A stretch of 64,000 nucleotides of DNA, taken from sequence record OZ317122.1. One strand, 5' to 3'. Position 1 is the first letter of the stretch. Each line of letters opens with the position of its first letter. The notes beneath the pieces are model-generated. The model was not told the origin of the DNA. It searched no databases and was given only the letters and a program-made list of their open reading frames with translations. The stretch is from a phage. Positions 4,801 to 45,910 of the stretch are shown here, piece after piece. The translations under genes and the position numbers were made by a program.

Positions 4801-5997
4801 TGTAATAATGTCAAACTGTTCTTTAAAGCAGAAGCTTGAATCTTGATGCTGATACAAAAATTCATAAGCTTTTTCGCGTTCACGGTCATAAAGAGTTCGG
4901 TCAGATGACAGTTCTTTAATACGTTCAAATGTTGATTCCATGTCATTTTCATCAAACCAAATGATACCGCTATCATGCGAGGTCAAAGGAGTATTATCAA
5001 CACGGAATTTTAAATTTTCGCCAGTAGATTTCCAAAATACCGGAATTGTTCCACATGCACCAAGCTCGAGATGAGTATATTCTAAAGAACGTTGTAGATA
5101 TTTTTTGTCCAACTTACTCAGCTGATAACCAAATCCGGATTTACTCATGCGTTCAAGCATTTCGCTATTTACATAACGGTCAAGAATTTGCGTTGGCAAA
5201 TTAGGAGCAATTTTAATTTGGTCTACTTGATGAAGACGATAATACTCGTATGGAATTCCTTTTTCTTTAATAGGAATGAACGCTGGAGAACGTTCCAGAC
5301 CTTCCATAATAGTACTTAGTCCTGCAGGTTTAAGATGTTTTTCATGAAAATCAAACATCTGATAAAAACCTTTCCATGTAGTCGTACGACCAATCCAACG
5401 GTTGATATTCATGTTAATTTCAGAAACATCTTTCCAGTAGGTTGACCGAACCTTCGCAATATCCATAGGAGGCTGAAAGTTATATACGGTCGGTGCTTCT
5501 TCAATATCATCAAACAGAGAAACTGTTTCTGGATACCATTCTTTCATCAGAACTTTATTAAAATCACCATTATCAGAATGGCTAAAAATAACATCAGCTC
5601 GACGAACAGTTTCTTCTAATCCCAAATTTCGGCGCAAAGAAAGAGAAGAATGGTCATGTTGATAAACTACAACACGAACAGAAGGTTTAATGTTATCAAT
5701 AATTTTTTTATAGTTATTAATAGTGTCTTCTTCAACCGAAGTAGCAGGAACTGAATTGATAATTAGAATATCACAATCATTTACCAGCTTAAGTGTTTTA
5801 TCGTATTCTTTTGCTAATAAAACCGGAATTGAAAATGATTTATAATCATGCGCACAATTACGAGTAAATGATTTATCTTTAGCATAAACCAAAGTTACTT
5901 CATGACCATTTTTAATAAACCAATCACGTTGCTCGAGTGAGAATTTTGTTACACCACAACCTTCAAGACCTCGAGCCATAAAAATACATACTTTCAT
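4795..5997 (-). CDS. a-gt: DNA alpha-glucosyltransferase
   Basis: 400 aa; N-terminus and overall sequence match remembered T4 alpha-glucosyltransferase. Confidence 0.85.
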   Translation of the reverse strand: MKVCIFMARGLEGCGVTKFSLEQRDWFIKNGHEVTLVYAKDKSFTRNCAHDYKSFSIPVLLAKEYDKTLKLVNDCDILIINSVPATSVEEDTINNYKKIIDNIKPSVRVVVYQHDHSSLSLRRNLGLEETVRRADVIFSHSDNGDFNKVLMKEWYPETVSLFDDIEEAPTVYNFQPPMDIAKVRSTYWKDVSEINMNINRWIGRTTTWKGFYQMFDFHEKHLKPAGLSTIMEGLERSPAFIPIKEKGIPYEYYRLHQVDQIKIAPNLPTQILDRYVNSEMLERMSKSGFGYQLSKLDKKYLQRSLEYTHLELGACGTIPVFWKSTGENLKFRVDNTPLTSHDSGIIWFDENDMESTFERIKELSSDRTLYDREREKAYEFLYQHQDSSFCFKEQFDIITK

Positions 5998-28385: not shown

Positions 28386-28923
28386 TTACTATTTCCAAAA
28401 GTTTATTATTTTTAAGGTAATTAGCCTTTTCTAGGACTTCAGAAGCATATTTAGAACCTGCTTTAACATTCCATCCCGAATTATAAGAGGATATTGCTTT
28501 TCTTATATCGCCCTTATGTATATTTAACCAATAAGAAAGTTCAATGTACGCCCAGGAAGCTGAATTGGACCGTTTATTCAACATTCTTTTTATTTCAGCA
28601 TCGGTCATATTATAACCAAGTTCCTTAACTCTTGCTCGCATAGTAGGCAAATAATTTTGGAACATTCCATAAGCGTGATGCTTTGGTTTAGATTTTAAAT
28701 TAACTCCGCCAGAGCTTTCTTGCCATAAAATAGCAGCCATTATATGACCTAATCCGCTCTTGTGGATATTTTTGTGTGTTTTATATTTTCCATCCTTAGA
28801 AAATTGTTCCCCGAATTGATACGCGTAACGCATGTTATCGAGTTGGACATTACTGAAAGTATGCTCGGAGCTATGTGCCATCATTGAAATGGCCAATAGA
28901 CCAGCGAGTAGTGCTTTTCTCAT
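28378..28923 (-). CDS. secreted lytic transglycosylase-like protein (vs.1 position)
   Basis: Signal peptide; SLT-like motifs WQESSGG, AYGMFQ, SYNSG. Confidence 0.6.
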   Translation of the reverse strand: MRKALLAGLLAISMMAHSSEHTFSNVQLDNMRYAYQFGEQFSKDGKYKTHKNIHKSGLGHIMAAILWQESSGGVNLKSKPKHHAYGMFQNYLPTMRARVKELGYNMTDAEIKRMLNKRSNSASWAYIELSYWLNIHKGDIRKAISSYNSGWNVKAGSKYASEVLEKANYLKNNKLLEIVND

Positions 28924-28930
28924 GCTTACC

Positions 28931-29392
28931 TCATTGAGTTTTAATTACTGCTTTAGAAGCCTTTCCTGGTAAACGACGACTATTGATAATTGCCATCCTG
29001 CATTGAAGCGACGGGTCTTTGAACTTCGCATTAGGTTTACAAACTGTAAATCCAAGCCAAAGATTTCCATCTGTGATTTCTAAACGTCCAGGACGGTATT
29101 CAACCCCATCAATAAAATCCTCATCAATGTCAGGACGCGGAGGCATACTCAGGAATTCATTAACTTCTAAAACATGGTCTTTTATTTTGTGGAATAATTC
29201 AAAAACATATGTCTCATCAATCTCCCGTTGAATTGCACGATCAAGAAGATGCTGAGAATATTTTAGATGAAACGATGAGACCCCTGCTGCTTTTGATGCC
29301 TCACGAATCTCATTGTTAATTTGACGAAACTCCGACTCAAAATGACGACGAAGCTTATTTCGACGGATAAAAACTTCTGTATTGATAGTCAT
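28931..29392 (-). CDS. regB: endoribonuclease RegB
   Basis: 153 aa; MTINTEVFIRRNKLRRHFESEF...; matches remembered T4 RegB. Confidence 0.8.
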   Translation of the reverse strand: MTINTEVFIRRNKLRRHFESEFRQINNEIREASKAAGVSSFHLKYSQHLLDRAIQREIDETYVFELFHKIKDHVLEVNEFLSMPPRPDIDEDFIDGVEYRPGRLEITDGNLWLGFTVCKPNAKFKDPSLQCRMAIINSRRLPGKASKAVIKTQ

Positions 29393-29417
29393 GTTGTTCT
29401 CCTCTTAACTGATAGAA

Positions 29418-29470
29418 AAATTATACCACAGTCAAGAGGAAAAGTAAACAGTTATTCTTTAAATCTAATC
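29418..29470 (-). promoter_or_regulatory. T4-type early promoter upstream of regB
   Basis: Minus strand GTTTAC, spacer, tggTATAAT. Confidence 0.55.
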
Positions 29471-29730
29471 AATTTATTCATAGACTTTGAAACTTCTGCA
29501 CGAACCTCATGTAGATTTTTGAGCTGTTCAAGACGCTGCGTATAGTAAGCAATTTCATCTTCTTCGAGACAGTCCTGTGAATCTTCTTTAAGATACCGTG
29601 CATAGTCCTGGAAAGCGTTACGGACTACTTCCTGGAAGTCATCAAGACTTTGAATTTTCTTAGGAGCAGCAGACACACGACGAGGGGCAGTATAATACTC
29701 ATAACCAAACCCTGCGCTTAATTGAGCCAT
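29452..29730 (-). CDS. hypothetical protein (vs.3 position)
   Basis: Trimmed to ATG at 29728-29730, overlapping upstream stop. Confidence 0.4.
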
Positions 29731-29996
29731 TAGTATTTTTCCTCTGGTTGGAACACAGCACGACAAGCCCACATACTGGCTTCTTTGAGTTTCGTTTTAG
29801 CAATAGCTAACTGATCGAGGCTTTCAGCATAATTCTTCGCGAGTTCAAAGTCTTCGCAATTATCTAGTGCTTCCCAGAATTCATCATATAAAGCATCAAA
29901 GATAAGTCCTAAACGAACTTCAGCGTCTTTAATAGCATTTACTTTACCGATTTTTTCGTCGGTATGTGGCTTATAACCTTTAATATCTTCAATCAT
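29730..29996 (-). CDS. small acidic protein at vs.4 position, candidate Acb2-like cyclic-nucleotide sponge
   Basis: 88 aa from ATG at 29994-29996; assigned only by gene order between regB and denV (fourth of six vs-position ORFs). Confidence 0.4.
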
Positions 29997-30210
29997 ATTT
30001 GACTTCCTCACCAGTACATAAATCGTATTCAACTAAACGAATAGGTTCATGAATGCCATATCCCTGAACAGAAATTTCTGTCGTAGGATAAATTCCACTA
30101 ATATCACCCATATTCCACGCTTCATTAAATTGCTGTTCGCCTGAATTACTAAACCACTCGGCGAAAGCATTTAGCACATCTTCAGAACCTTCAATAATTA
30201 TCTTTGCCAT
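29989..30210 (-). CDS. hypothetical acidic protein (vs.5 position)
   Basis: 73-aa ORF, ATG start. Confidence 0.45.
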   Translation of the reverse strand: MAKIIIEGSEDVLNAFAEWFSNSGEQQFNEAWNMGDISGIYPTTEISVQGYGIHEPIRLVEYDLCTGEEVKYD

Positions 30211-30572
30211 TACAAACTCTCGGTGAAGGTACGAGCGATAACGTCGCGCTGCTGTTCCGGAGTCAGAGAGTTAAAGCGAACTGCATAACCGGATACACGG
30301 ATGGTCAGCTGCGGATATTTTTCCGGATGCTTAACTGCATCTTCCAGAGTTTCACGACGCAGAACGTTAACGTTCAGGTGTTGACCACCTTCAATTTTAA
30401 CTGTAGGCTGTTGCTCAATTTCAATTTCACGGGCATGCAAACCATAGAAAATTTCTGGGTCTACAAAAGAGTCCTCTTTAAAGGTTTTAGAGACAATAAT
30501 TCGTGCTTGAATACCATCTTCAAAATAAATAGTACCTTTATGTGTGCCTTCAAGAATTTGATATGCTTTCAT
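30210..30572 (-). CDS. autonomous glycyl-radical cofactor protein (GrcA/YfiD-like)
   Basis: C-terminal [61 protein letters not shown] with RVSGY glycyl-radical signature. Confidence 0.85.
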
Positions 30573-30578
30573 ATAACC

Positions 30579-30908
30579 TCAATTAGAAAATAAATTTATC
30601 CAAGATTGTTCTTTAATTAAAAATGGCTCAGAATCATATGCCATTAAACTCTGTGTGATTAGTTCTTTAAAAGGCCCATCAATAAATTCCATGGTAAAAT
30701 ATGGAATTTTATTCATTAGCCGTGCATTAGGAGCCGTGCACAAAACTCTGCATCCTTTGAATACGCCTTTTTGTAATTTGTATTGCTTGGGATAAAATTC
30801 GCTCAAAATGTTATTTTTTGCCAAAATTTCAAAATGATTCACCAATTTATTTTTAATAGTTTTTGGCGAAAAATAAAGATATTCGAAAAGCTGAGTGTCT
30901 GTCATCAT
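30579..30908 (-). CDS. hypothetical protein (vs.7 position)
   Basis: Trimmed to ATG at 30906-30908 overlapping upstream stop; ATG at 30959 is an alternative. Confidence 0.4.
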   Translation of the reverse strand: MMTDTQLFEYLYFSPKTIKNKLVNHFEILAKNNILSEFYPKQYKLQKGVFKGCRVLCTAPNARLMNKIPYFTMEFIDGPFKELITQSLMAYDSEPFLIKEQSWINLFSN

Positions 30909-31444
30909 TGCATTCCGATTACGAAAAACTGTGGACGAGTAATACCACCAATGCAACATTTAATATTACAGCAGCAGTGTACAGTGTCAATATGGACACT
31001 ATAAATCTTATCCATATCAGGAGATTTGACAGGCTCATCAATTATATACAAAATTCGCGAAAGTGATAAACCTCTGAACTTGCTTCCTTTATTACCAATA
31101 AAACTGCGCACAGAATCAGTAAATAAACGAAAACGTATATCATCATTAGAATAACGCGAAAATTCCTTTTTAATATTATCTGCGGAAATTTTAGCGTAAG
31201 CTGAAGTATTAGAAAGAACAATAACTGTTCCACCGTCATACAACCAATTAGCGGCAAAATTAGTTACTGCAGTTGATTTACCAGATTGACGCCCACCATC
31301 TAGTCGAAGTGTGCAATACTGTTTAAGTAAGTCTTCAAATGGTGGGATATAATCGTTTTTACAAATTTCTTCTACTCTAGCATTAGAATGGTGTGTAAAA
31401 GCATTCATCAGGGATAGATAAGGACCAGTTAAAAATGTTCTCAT
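30905..31444 (-). CDS. P-loop NTPase-like protein (vs.8 position)
   Basis: 179 aa; Walker A-like GGRQSGKST; C-terminal Cys cluster HCCCNIKCC. Confidence 0.45.
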   Translation of the reverse strand: MRTFLTGPYLSLMNAFTHHSNARVEEICKNDYIPPFEDLLKQYCTLRLDGGRQSGKSTAVTNFAANWLYDGGTVIVLSNTSAYAKISADNIKKEFSRYSNDDIRFRLFTDSVRSFIGNKGSKFRGLSLSRILYIIDEPVKSPDMDKIYSVHIDTVHCCCNIKCCIGGITRPQFFVIGMQ

Positions 31445-31590
31445 TTTTGTTCTCTCTAGGTTTGGGCCATTCCATGGCGCATGAATTGTCCATTTCTGTA
31501 TTTACCCATTACCGCACTTGGGCTCGACCTTATTACAGGTTGGCGGGAATCCCTCACAGAATCATGAGGTCCAGGTTATTCCCATGTTAT

Positions 31591-32007
31591 TTAAATGTAA
31601 ATATTTTTGCCGTAATACTTATACCAGTGTGGCTTCATTAAAATTTTTTCATCGAGTCGTTGTTGACTCAACTTAATAGCTGATTTGCATGGATTATAAT
31701 CATTTTTCCATTCTACTGGAATATCGCTGATGTCAGGAACTTCAGTATCTTTTATACTGAACCCGCGTTTTAAGCATTCCGTTATAATGTCCGATTGACG
31801 CTTTCGCAAAAATTCTAACTTATCGTAAAAGAAAGTAACATGACCAGAACCTAAAATAAATTTAGAAGATATTTTAAAATCTTTAACGCGCTTACCGTTT
31901 GCCACATGCTTACGAACTATACCAAAAACACGCGGCAATTCACGGTATTCTGCGATTAAATGTTGATCAGCAAGTTCAGATACTAAAGTCAAATTAATAC
32001 GAGTCAT
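31591..32007 (-). CDS. denV: endonuclease V (pyrimidine-dimer DNA glycosylase)
   Basis: 138 aa; [17 protein letters not shown]...; matches remembered T4 endo V. Confidence 0.85.
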
Positions 32008-32021
32008 TTTATCCCTCCAAG

Positions 32022-32597
<576 letters not shown>

Positions 32598-33053
32598 TTA
32601 AAAGAGGCTGTTCATTATTCGGTAAAGTGAAGGACCCATCACATATTGCCACTGAGTACGAGGAATAAGAGCAAAAGCATCCATCTCTGGAATCATAACG
32701 CCATCTTTATTTTCAAAATAAGACTCGCAATGGCAATTTCTAAACATCTCATGCTCTACTGGAATCGTATAATAAAATAACTGTAAGTCTTTATTACTAG
32801 AATATTTAAATACACCTAGGTCTTCTAGAAGGTCTGGATTATAATTGCTAAAACCGGTCTCTTCTAAGCATTCTCTTTTTGCAGCTTCCAGTGCATTCAA
32901 ATCAGAACTTTCTACGCGGCCCTTTGGAATATCCCAGCGATGTGCCATCATTCCAGGCTTACGAGAACCAGTAACCCGACCCATAAATAAATCTTTATCT
33001 TCTGTCATAAAGATAATACCAGCTGATAGTGTTTTCATTTTAATTTCCTGCAT
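32598..33053 (-). CDS. nudE: Nudix hydrolase
   Basis: Nudix box GRVESSDLNALEAAKRECLEETGF. Confidence 0.75.
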   Translation of the reverse strand: MQEIKMKTLSAGIIFMTEDKDLFMGRVTGSRKPGMMAHRWDIPKGRVESSDLNALEAAKRECLEETGFSNYNPDLLEDLGVFKYSSNKDLQLFYYTIPVEHEMFRNCHCESYFENKDGVMIPEMDAFALIPRTQWQYVMGPSLYRIMNSLF

Positions 33054-37131: not shown

Positions 37132-37207
37132 CTGGTCGAGGCAGTAGGGATCGAACCTACGACCCAGGACTTAGAAGGTCCTTGCTCTTCCTTCTGAGCT
37201 ATGCCTC
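37132..37207 (-). tRNA. tRNA-Arg (anticodon TCT)
   Basis: Cloverleaf: acceptor CGAGGCA/TGCCTCG, anticodon loop CTTCTAA, T-arm GTAGGTTCGATCCCTAC, CCA encoded. Confidence 0.85.
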
Positions 37208-37211
37208 GTAT

Positions 37212-37286
37212 TTGGCGGACGTGATAGGATTCGAACCTATAACCAATCGCTTAACAGGCGATCGCTCTGCCATTGAGCTACACATC
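37212..37286 (-). tRNA. tRNA-Asn (anticodon GTT)
   Basis: D-stem GCTC/GAGC, anticodon stem ATCGC/GCGAT with loop CTGTTAA, T-arm ATAGGTTCGAATCCTAT, CCA encoded. Confidence 0.8.
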
Positions 37287-37290
37287 CAAA

Positions 37291-37377
37291 TTGGTGGGGA
37301 GTGGTGGAGTCGAACCACCCGAGTCGCAATGACAATGGATTTACAGTCCACACCGCTACCTCTACGGGATAACTCCC
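37291..37377 (-). tRNA. tRNA-Tyr (anticodon GTA), long variable arm
   Basis: Anticodon stem GTGGA/TCCAT with loop CTGTAAA; T-arm GGTGGTTCGACTCCACC; 87 nt; D-arm pairing less clean. Confidence 0.7.
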
Positions 37378-37387
37378 CAAATTAATT

Positions 37388-37462
37388 TGGTGGCCCTGGG
37401 TGGAATTGAACCACCATCTGGCGATTATGAGTCGCTTGCTTGAACCTTCCAGCTACAGGGCC
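37388..37462 (-). tRNA. tRNA with CAT anticodon (Met or lysidine-type Ile, as T4 tRNA-Ile)
   Basis: Anticodon loop CTCATAA; T-arm GGTGGTTCAATTCCACC; CCA encoded. Confidence 0.8.
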
Positions 37463-37463
37463 T

Positions 37464-37539
37464 TGGTGCTGATTGACGGAATCGAACCGCCGACCTTCTC
37501 ATTACAAGTGAGTTGCTCTACCTACTGAGCTAAATCAGC
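37464..37539 (-). tRNA. tRNA-Thr (anticodon TGT)
   Basis: D-arm TAGCTCAGTAGGTAGAGC, anticodon loop CTTGTAA, T-arm GGCGGTTCGATTCCGTC. Confidence 0.85.
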
Positions 37540-37544
37540 AAAAC

Positions 37545-37634
37545 TGGCGGAGGCGATAGGATTTGAACCTATGAGTCGCCGGAGCGACTGCCGGTTTTCA
37601 AGACCGGTGCATTAAACCACTCTGCCACGCCTCC
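37545..37634 (-). tRNA. tRNA-Ser (anticodon TGA), long variable arm
   Basis: Anticodon stem CCGGT/ACCGG with loop CTTGAAA; long variable arm; T-arm ATAGGTTCAAATCCTAT. Confidence 0.85.
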
Positions 37635-37636
37635 AG

Positions 37637-37710
37637 TCTCCGTGGCAGGATTTGAACCTACGACATTCTGCTCCCAAAGCAGACGCTCTACCAAACTGAG
37701 CTACACGAAG
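37637..37710 (-). tRNA. tRNA-Pro (anticodon TGG), 3' CCA not encoded
   Basis: Anticodon loop TTGGGAG; acceptor CTTCGTG/CACGGAG; only 2 nt separate it from tRNA-Ser. Confidence 0.8.
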
Positions 37711-37720
37711 TAAATTAAAT

Positions 37721-37794
<74 letters not shown>

Positions 37795-37799
37795 AAATT

Positions 37800-37886
37800 T
37801 GGTGCGAGAAGTGGGACTCGAACCCACAAGGAAATCATTCCGCAGCATTTTAAGTGCTGTGCCTTTACCAATTTGACCATTCTCGC
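37800..37886 (-). tRNA. tRNA-Leu (anticodon TAA), long variable arm
   Basis: Anticodon stem CAGCA/TGCTG with loop CTTAAAA; T-arm GTGGGTTCGAGTCCCAC. Confidence 0.85.
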
Positions 37887-39507: not shown

Positions 39508-39560
39508 GATAGGGTAATAGTATCACTACCCTATCTAAAAGTAAACTTATTTTTTACGAA
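39508..39560 (-). promoter_or_regulatory. T4-type early promoter with -10 region inside a 7-bp inverted repeat
   Basis: gataggg taatagtatcacta ccctatc then gtaaac at 39541. Confidence 0.5.
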
Positions 39561-39780
39561 AAATTGATTTATTTTCTGCTGCCCATTTTTCAATAACTGC
39601 AGCAGGACCAGTAACAACAATTTTATCACCGTAATCTTCTGCGGCGAGTTGACCGAAATTATCTAATGCATCACGAAGAACTCCATGAGGCATTTCACCC
39701 ATTTTATCTTTCTTGCCAGTGTAAATAAACTCAACTTTTACATCAGCAGTTTCAGCAATAAATTCTTGGTAAGTTTTCAT
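39547..39780 (-). CDS. internal-protein-like capsid-targeted protein (77 aa)
   Basis: Starts MKTYQEFIAE, the canonical T4 internal-protein leader with IAE protease-site motif. Confidence 0.6.
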   Translation of the reverse strand: MKTYQEFIAETADVKVEFIYTGKKDKMGEMPHGVLRDALDNFGQLAAEDYGDKIVVTGPAAVIEKWAAENKSIFRKK

Positions 39781-39807
39781 TTTGATTTCCATTTGGTTTT
39801 GTTTTGA

Positions 39808-39865
39808 TAGGGTAATAGTATCACAACTAAAACCCTATGTAAACAACTTTGTGAAATTATTTTAA
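39808..39865 (-). promoter_or_regulatory. T4-type early promoter
   Basis: atagggtaatagtatcacaactaaaaccctat then gtaaacaactttgtgaaattattttaaatc. Confidence 0.5.
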
Positions 39866-40114
39866 ATCTTCTAATCGTTTCTTCATCTTAGAACCATTTT
39901 TAGCAATTTCTCCTGCATCGGAGCATAATGCTAAAAGTGCTTTAACTTTAGTTTGGTCTCCTTTAAAAGATGAAGGATCGACCGCAGCAGCAAGTTCTTT
40001 AATACGAGAGAAAAGACGCTCAGCTTCAGCTAAAGCCATTCCAAGCTTTACTTCCATACCGTGGGAAGATTCAGTGATAGTAGTTTTTGTAGCAAACTCT
40101 TTGAAAGTTTTCAT
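39857..40114 (-). CDS. internal-protein-like capsid-targeted protein (85 aa)
   Basis: Starts MKTFKEFATKTTITE; AGGAAA ribosome-binding site. Confidence 0.55.
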   Translation of the reverse strand: MKTFKEFATKTTITESSHGMEVKLGMALAEAERLFSRIKELAAAVDPSSFKGDQTKVKALLALCSDAGEIAKNGSKMKKRLEDLK

Positions 40115-40139: not shown

Positions 40140-40872
<733 letters not shown>

Positions 40873-44199: not shown

Positions 44200-45910
44200 T
44201 AACCTTAATTGGTTTGTTGGTGTTGTTGAAGATAGAATGGACCCATTAAAATTAGGTCGTGTTCGTGTTCGTGTGGTTGGTCTGCATCCACCTCAAAGAG
44301 CACAAGGCGATGTAATGGGTATTCCAACTGAAAAATTACCATGGATGTCAGTTATTCAACCTATAACTTCTGCAGCAATGTCTGGAATTGGAGGTTCTGT
44401 TACTGGACCGGTAGAAGGAACTAGAGTTTATGGTCATTTTTTAGACAAATGGAAAACTAACGGAATTGTCCTTGGCACGTATGGTGGAATAGTTCGCGAA
44501 AAACCGAATAGACTTGAAGGATTTTCTGACCCAACTGGGCAATATCCTAGACGTTTAGGAAATGATACTAATGTATTAAACCAAGGCGGAGAAGTAGGAT
44601 ATGATTCGTCTTCTAACATTATCCAAGATAGTAACTTAGACACTGCAATAAATCCCGATGATAGACCACTATCAGAGATTCCAACCGATGATAATCCAAA
44701 TATGTCAATGGCTGACATGCTTCGCCGTGATGAAGGATTAAGACTAAAAGTTTATTGGGATACTGAAGGATATCCGACAATTGGTATTGGTCATCTTATC
44801 ATGAAGCAGCCAGTTCGTGATATGGCTCAAATTAATAAAGTTTTATCAAAACAAGTTGGTCGTGAAATTACTGGAAACCCAGGTTCTATTACGATGGAAG
44901 AGGCGACGACTTTATTTGAACGTGATTTGGCTGATATGCAACGGGACATTAAATCACATTCTAAAGTAGGACCAGTCTGGCAAGCTGTCAACCGTTCTCG
45001 TCAAATGGCGTTAGAAAATATGGCATTTCAAATGGGTGTTGGCGGTGTAGCTAAATTTAACACAATGTTAACTGCTATGTTAGCCGGAGATTGGGAAAAA
45101 GCATATAAAGCCGGTCGTGATTCATTGTGGTATCAACAAACAAAAGGCCGTGCATCCCGTGTTACCATGATTATTCTTACGGGGAATTTGGAATCATATG
45201 GTGTTGAAGTGAAAACCCCAGCTAGGTCTCTATCAGCAATGGCTGCTACTGTAGCTAAATCTTCTGACCCGGCTGACCCTCCTATTCCAAATGACTCGAG
45301 AATTTTATTCAAAGAACCAGTTTCTTCATATAAAGGTGAATATCCTTATGTGCATACAATGGAAACTGAAAGCGGACATATTCAGGAATTTGATGATACT
45401 CCTGGGCAAGAACGATACAGATTAGTTCATCCGACTGGAACTTATGAAGAAGTATCACCGTCAGGAAGAAGAACAAGAAAAACTGTCGATAATTTGTATG
45501 ATATAACCAACGCTGATGGTAATTTTTTGGTAGCCGGTGATAAAAAGACTAACGTCGGTGGATCAGAAATTTATTACAACATGGATAATCGTCTTCACCA
45601 AATAGATGGAAGCAATACAATATTTGTACGTGGCGATGAAACTAAGACAGTTGAAGGCAATGGAACTATCCTAGTTAAAGGTAATGTTACTATTGTAGTT
45701 GAAGGTAATGCTGACATTACAGTTAAAGGAGATGCTACCACTTTAGTTGAAGGAAATCAAACTAACACAGTAAATGGAAATCTTTCTTGGAAAGTTGCTG
45801 GGACAGTTGATTGGGACGTTGGTGGTGATTGGACAGAAAAAATGGCATCTATGAGTTCTATTTCATCTGGTCAATACACAATTGATGGATCGAGGATTGA
45901 CATTGGCTAA
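44183..45910 (+). CDS. 5: baseplate hub/tail lysozyme gp5
   Basis: 575 aa; OB-fold N-terminus, lysozyme domain (DEGLRLKVYWDTEGYPTIGIGH), beta-helix VEGN repeats. Confidence 0.95.
   Translation: MEMISNNLNWFVGVVEDRMDPLKLGRVRVRVVGLHPPQRAQGDVMGIPTEKLPWMSVIQPITSAAMSGIGGSVTGPVEGTRVYGHFLDKWKTNGIVLGTYGGIVREKPNRLEGFSDPTGQYPRRLGNDTNVLNQGGEVGYDSSSNIIQDSNLDTAINPDDRPLSEIPTDDNPNMSMADMLRRDEGLRLKVYWDTEGYPTIGIGHLIMKQPVRDMAQINKVLSKQVGREITGNPGSITMEEATTLFERDLADMQRDIKSHSKVGPVWQAVNRSRQMALENMAFQMGVGGVAKFNTMLTAMLAGDWEKAYKAGRDSLWYQQTKGRASRVTMIILTGNLESYGVEVKTPARSLSAMAATVAKSSDPADPPIPNDSRILFKEPVSSYKGEYPYVHTMETESGHIQEFDDTPGQERYRLVHPTGTYEEVSPSGRRTRKTVDNLYDITNADGNFLVAGDKKTNVGGSEIYYNMDNRLHQIDGSNTIFVRGDETKTVEGNGTILVKGNVTIVVEGNADITVKGDATTLVEGNQTNTVNGNLSWKVAGTVDWDVGGDWTEKMASMSSISSGQYTIDGSRIDIG

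Follow-up and report, generated by a model that had tools for sequence, protein, structure and literature searches.

A predicted Acb2 cyclic-dinucleotide sponge, orthologous to T4 Vs.4, encoded between regB and denV of a Tequatrovirus phage

Gene content of the regB-denV block

The window, i.e., the whole 64,000-nucleotide stretch of phage DNA analyzed here (OZ317122.1), comes from a Tequatrovirus. The 3.2-kb block around the gene under study, acb2 (T4 vs.4), shows 99.0-99.5% identity to many Tequatrovirus genomes, with Escherichia phage KarlGJung as the top match (~99.5%), and 486 records span at least 80% of it. Synteny was established by tblastn of the T4 reference proteins (annotation table of NC_000866) onto the window, which placed tk, vs, vs.1, regB, vs.3, vs.4, vs.5, vs.6, vs.7, vs.8, denV, e, and nudE in that order; identities to T4 are 95.5% for vs.4, 99.1% for vs.7, 78.1% for denV, 97.0% for e, and 95.4% for nudE, with those of regB, vs.3, and vs.6 given in Table 1. 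With regB, vs.3 to vs.8, and denV in the T4 order, regB and denV enclose exactly six genes, as had been claimed in an earlier reading made from the sequence alone (hereafter the sequence-only reading). That reading erred in counting the 88-aa frame as the fourth of the six: it sits between vs.3 and vs.5 and is thus the second from regB and the fifth in the direction of transcription.

Table 1. Coordinates of the features discussed in the text (positions in the window).
Feature	Coordinates	Strand	Description	Evidence
regB	28934..29392			99.3% identity to T4 (tblastn)
vs.3 homologue	29452..29730	-	92 aa from ATG 29730	98.9% to T4 Vs.3 over residues 1-92 at 29730..29455 (tblastn)
acb2 / vs.4 CDS	29730..29996	-	88 aa and TAA stop, ATG start; predicted cyclic-dinucleotide sponge	ORF, translation, homology
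vs.5 homologue	29989..30210	-	73 aa	end-to-end match to phrog_1986, E 2.7e-43; ORF list; DNA alignment with T4
GAGGA, Shine-Dalgarno-like	30005..30009	-	8 nt 5' of the acb2 ATG, within the 3' end of vs.5	
vs.6	30210..30572	-	120 aa; autonomous glycyl-radical cofactor GrcA/YfiD homologue	98.3% to T4
vs.8	30905..31444	-	179 aa	phrog_1488, full 177-position profile
denV (endonuclease V)	31591..32007 (tblastn match 31597..32007)	-		78% protein identity to T4
Acb1 / gene 57B	40191..40646	-		100% identical to T4 (tblastn)

Several neighbors of acb2 depart from the T4 record in ways that merit comment in their own right. In vs.5, the T4 reference carries a 1-nt deletion (TTTCG-CGAG versus TTTCGCCGAG here) that switches the frame after codon 17, and the T4 gene (compared piece 5382..5558) is annotated with just 58 aa, ending 36 nt upstream of vs.4. 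Given this deletion and the end-to-end fit of the 73-aa version to its PHROGs profile, the T4 reference vs.5 looks like a frameshifted or mis-sequenced form of the family's normal 73-aa gene. Whereas T4 vs.8 is annotated with 219 aa, the gene here encodes 179 aa; an indel of 7 nt (GCTTATA in T4) shifts the first 40 T4 codons into another frame. Even so, DNA-level conservation remains high over ~120 nt 5' of vs.8 (within 31445..31590). The stretch there (31440..31595, minus strand) is unusually G+C-rich for this phage and corresponds to the N-terminus of the longer vs.8 in the T4 annotation. A structured RNA was considered for this stretch and rejected, as Rfam gave no match at E-values up to 1 and the folding z-score (0.40) was no better than that of shuffled sequences; the Rfam search of the whole region 28900..32700 likewise found nothing. 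The vs.6 gene, two genes upstream of acb2, is labelled GrcA/YfiD in several relatives; as such it would supply the phage with its own replacement part for pyruvate formate-lyase damaged by oxygen. Finally, the 78% identity of the denV product to that of T4, amid flanking genes at 95-100%, suggests that this denV allele is a mosaic replacement.

Reading frame, start site, and junctions of acb2

The acb2 frame encodes an acidic 10.2-kDa protein (pI 4.64; 19 D+E versus 12 K+R), and the small acidic 88-aa gene that the sequence-only reading had called at this position is real, with an intact frame and full-length homologues. Its ATG is directly preceded by the context ...GGTGAGGAAGTCAAAT, and the Shine-Dalgarno-like GAGGA within it is the same in T4 and in phage 232Ecol030PP. 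The acb2 start and the vs.5 stop share 8 nt (ATGATTGA), an overlap that points to translational coupling, and the acb2 stop and the vs.3 ATG share a single nucleotide (TAATG), a junction also annotated in T4 and 232Ecol030PP. The three genes vs.5, acb2, and vs.3 thus probably form a tightly packed, translationally coupled chain. Scans of the region 28900..32700 returned promoter-like and terminator-like sites at about the numbers seen by chance, viz., 12 promoter-consensus matches versus 12.9 expected from shuffled sequences, with none assigned to acb2, and three terminator-like sites versus 2.3 expected, with no transcription unit assigned.

A decayed or mis-called frame, in which the gene would be non-functional or its true product would be a 100-aa version begun at a TTG, might be entertained on two grounds: the listed open reading frame runs up to a TTG at 30032 (29730..30032), and the neighboring vs.5 and vs.8 both carry frame-changing indels relative to T4. 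Yet nothing interrupts the 88-aa frame, which matches the protein crystallized from T4 collinearly from residue 1, and the TTG extension lies inside the coding sequence of vs.5 and receives no support from homologues. The GAGGA 8 nt upstream of the ATG at 29996, together with the alignment of residues 1-88 with T4 Vs.4, identifies this ATG as the true start, and the 100-aa frame was rejected. Relative to T4, acb2 has six synonymous and four non-synonymous changes (dN/dS 0.14) and is under purifying selection. Its product has full-length, uninterrupted tblastn matches in 1236 phage records, down to ~52% identity, which, along with the dN/dS, shows that the frame did not arise by chance; at least 57 phage records have it at 99% identity or more. 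The probability of a decayed or mis-called gene is accordingly close to negligible, and we proceed with the intact 88-aa product.

Identity of the 88-aa protein

The sequence-only reading had arrived at Acb2 from gene order alone, and direct comparisons with characterized Acb2 proteins, one of the checks that it had proposed, bear the assignment out. In a search against all PDB sequences, the protein aligns with T4 Vs.4 (PDB 7UQ2) without gaps and with 84 of 88 residues identical (95.5%; E 8.2e-54), followed by the groups of PaMx33 Acb2 structures typified by 8H2J and 8IXZ (E ~0.01), a weaker but specific match. It also hits the Pfam family PF24729 (Acb2_Tad1_hairpin, 'Acb2/Tad1, hairpin domain') over the full 58-position profile with 73.6 bits (E 1.5e-20), well above the gathering cut-off of 27 bits, and falls in phrog_717 of PHROGs (E 3.4e-32), the family by which Jenson et al. 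defined the Vs.4 homologues (PMC10097602). It is 100% identical to WZX06099.1 from phage 232Ecol030PP, which is annotated as 'anti-CBASS protein 2'. Homologues were detected by tblastn in 1240 phage records, 57 of them at ≥99% identity and 241 at 95-99%, with a tail that reaches 32% identity in phage HK639.

Together with the conserved functional residues described below, these matches indicate, with a probability that we put at roughly 0.93, that the 88-aa frame encodes the orthologue of T4 vs.4, now termed acb2 (anti-CBASS 2), and hence a predicted homohexameric cyclic-dinucleotide (CDN) sponge directed against CBASS. It is a known and already annotated gene, an ordinary copy of the well-studied T4 vs.4.

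Predicted fold

An AlphaFold2 model computed from the single sequence has two long antiparallel helices (residues 13-45 and 50-81; mean pLDDT 83.2). A Foldseek search of this model against the PDB recovered the chains of 7UQ2 first (E 1.5e-8) and then the Acb2 structures 8H2X and 8H2J (E 0.07-0.13). Structure prediction of the hexameric sponge fold, which the sequence-only reading had also proposed, thus gave for the protomer a helical hairpin with Vs.4 as its top structural match; the model is of a monomer, and it superposes on the 7UQ2 chains with a TM-score of ~0.55, whereas generic designed helical hairpins reach higher values, up to 0.75. The top rank of Vs.4/Acb2 is partly owed to sequence. 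Given the TM-score and the better superposition of generic hairpins, we regard the fold search as consistent with Acb2 and not as independent proof of it.

Functional residues and the four substitutions

The residue roles in T4 Vs.4 were defined by crystallography and mutagenesis (PMC10097602). The bases of cGAMP are held by stacking against Y8 and F82, with hydrogen bonds and salt bridges from Y8, H11, K23, and R79; S74 is near the ligand, T12 is a helix cap, and the hexamer interface is made up of L29, F33, A66, A73, and A77, mutation of which kills both oligomerization and binding; T12 and L60 were both recovered in a genetic screen (PMC10097602). In the protein studied here all six cGAMP contacts (Y8, H11, K23, S74, R79, F82) and all five interface residues are identical to T4, and T12 and L60 are retained as well.

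The four differences from T4 are E13D, C50F, F52L, and T64A, none of them at a published contact or interface residue. A family alignment of nine sequences, reaching down to 30% identity, has invariant columns at G7, Y8, N20, K23, M75, R79, and P84, with a variable part that spans approximately residues 36 to 64 and corresponds to the tip of the hairpin. Three of the four differences (C50F, F52L, and T64A) fall within this variable tip, and the remaining one, E13D, is conservative and lies beside the T12 helix cap.

The T64A change raises the issue of ligand range, as A64, along with F50 and L52, could in principle confer weak binding of cyclic trinucleotides (cA3/cAAG), by enlarging the occluded and crowded central pocket, or alter the discrimination against the Panoptes decoy 2',3'-c-di-AMP. 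T4 Acb2 itself binds neither cA3 nor cAAG; it has D61 at the column of PaMx33 R67, and the helix lining its pocket lacks a kink (PMC10312549). T64 belongs to a set of five T4 residues (Y37, A57, L60, D61, T64) that have been put forward as clashing with cA3 (PMC10312549), and the alanine seen here is also the residue at that column in PaMx33 Acb2, which binds cA3. Against this, Y37, A57, and L60 are the same as in T4, and D61 is kept where PaMx33 has its essential R67. Moreover, cA3 binding was also absent in a D61R version of T4 Acb2, a failure attributed to helix geometry, with the absence of a kink and a smaller pocket (PMC10312549), and for this reason we rate a changed ligand range as very unlikely. 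The retained Acb1 may in any case cover trinucleotide signals by degrading them. The broad-spectrum subtype that takes both CDNs and cyclic trinucleotides (PaMx33/JBD67 type) is recognized by Arg at the R67 column and Thr at the T74 column; here these columns are occupied by D61 and T68, respectively, placing the protein outside that subtype. As D61 and T68 are kept as in T4 Acb2, this Acb2 is expected, like that of T4, to bind no cyclic trinucleotides. Were the range nevertheless shifted, this allele would be a natural specificity variant within the Tequatrovirus Acb2 proteins.

Retargeting of the Acb2 fold to a signal outside CBASS, e.g., the Thoeris signal 3'cADPR, has a precedent in the ten Acb2 homologues that inhibit type I Thoeris, one of which binds 3'cADPR and not cGAMP (PMC12393519). 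The Thoeris-active homologues, however, belong to distant clades, and the protein here, with its 95.5% identity to T4 and all CDN contacts intact, is extremely improbable as a further case. The reading that best accommodates the residue data is thus a CDN sponge of the T4 type.

Proposed mechanism

By orthology with T4 Vs.4, we infer that the protein forms hexamers, binds ligand, and inhibits CBASS. Each 10.2-kDa chain would fold into a helical hairpin, and six chains would interlock into a hexamer with room for three cyclic dinucleotides, each bound where two chains meet, by analogy with the T4 protein. Y8 and F82 would stack on the ligand bases, with Y8, H11, K23, and R79 furnishing hydrogen bonds or salt bridges. 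By holding the signal without cleaving it, Acb2 would prevent the activation of CBASS effectors (the phospholipase CapV, for one), and with the effectors so starved the phage could complete its cycle. This scheme follows what has been reported for T4, namely a complex of one hexamer with three cGAMP molecules and a Kd for 3',3'-cGAMP of ~30 nM (PMC10097602), a separately determined cGAMP Kd of ~84 nM (PMC10312549), and a ~50-fold sensitization to CBASS upon knockout of vs.4 (PMC10097602, PMC10312549).

T4 Acb2 also binds the decoy 2',3'-c-di-AMP (~62 nM) and is both necessary and sufficient for triggering the Panoptes (OptSE) defense, and the F82C and Y8A mutations also abolish this triggering (PMC12657218). 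The ortholog here should share the liability, soaking up 2',3'-c-di-AMP and thereby triggering Panoptes, so that acb2 would be at once an anti-defense factor and a liability.

Acb1 and other features elsewhere in the genome

The window also encodes Acb1, as gene 57B (Table 1), so that, judged by homology, the phage has the full T4 anti-CBASS pair of Acb1 and Acb2. Since both are carried, the phage should evade many CBASS systems. 57A and gene 1 come after gene 57B, which the T4 RefSeq record still labels as 'RNA ligase'.

Further features were noted away from acb2. The window lacks the T4 internal-protein genes ipII and ipIII, with just 59 nt between denV and e (32008..32066), and ipI has no tblastn match in it either. 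The ipI slot by 57B (39547..40114, minus strand) has two small open reading frames of 81 and 85 aa, whose products begin with MEIKMKTYQEFIAE... and MKTFKEFATK..., respectively. These starts resemble the conserved capsid-targeting leader of the T4 internal proteins, a likeness by which the two frames would belong, as alternative versions, to the hypervariable set of internal proteins. The tRNA cluster (37133..37886, minus strand) has nine genes, viz., Arg, Asn, Tyr, Met-CAT, Thr, Ser, Pro, Gly, and Leu, versus eight in the T4 record (Arg, Ile, Thr, Ser, Pro, Gly, Leu, and Gln), where the homing endonuclease gene segB lies between them; relative to T4, Asn and Tyr are extra here, no Gln was called, and the tRNA genes are too closely spaced for segB to lie among them. 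A second lysozyme-like segment (44702..45199, plus strand) has 43% identity to T4 lysozyme e by tblastn and, going by the T4 map, is presumably the lysozyme domain of the baseplate hub protein gp5.

Implications

The proper label for this gene is acb2 (anti-CBASS protein 2), in place of the 'hypothetical protein' that the majority of the 1240 phage records with a homologue carry, and beyond correct annotation the finding matters little. While expected to evade many CBASS systems, the phage should be vulnerable to decoy defenses of the Panoptes type, which respond to Acb2. At ≥99% identity, 57 phage records share the natural T64A/C50F/F52L allele, which would be an inexpensive probe of the sponge's tolerance to change at the hairpin tip and in the central pocket.

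Comparison with known systems

The closest characterized relative is T4 Vs.4/Acb2 (7UQ2; Jenson et al., 2023, PMC10097602), which shares the length of 88 aa, the 95.5% identity, the slot between vs.3 and vs.5, and the TAATG junction. It differs from the present version in the four substitutions E13D, C50F, F52L, and T64A and in its upstream neighbor: vs.5 here has 73 aa and overlaps the acb2 start, whereas that of the T4 record has 58 aa and ends 36 nt upstream.

PaMx33 Acb2 (p26; 8H2J, 8H2X, 8IXZ; Huiting et al., 2023, as relayed in PMC10312549; Cao et al., PMC10312549) belongs to the same Pfam family and, in that account, has the hairpin fold and the hexameric sponge mechanism. It shares the tyrosine (Y8 here, Y11 in PaMx33), lysine (K23/K26), and R79-equivalent CDN contacts, as well as the alanine at position 64. 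In contrast, its identity to the present protein is ~30% over the aligned part, and its R67 and T74 bind cyclic trinucleotides in the central pocket, with D61 at the R67 column here.

Acb1, the product of T4 gene 57B, counters the same signaling pathway and is encoded in the same window, but is an enzyme of unrelated fold that degrades cyclic oligonucleotides, whereas Acb2 is a protein that sequesters them without cleavage. Tad1 (Thoeris anti-defense 1) has the Pfam 'Acb2/Tad1 hairpin' domain in common with Acb2 and likewise works as a sponge; it is larger and binds gcADPR in addition to CDNs and cyclic trinucleotides, in contrast to the Acb2 encoded here, which is predicted to be a plain hairpin with no extra domain.
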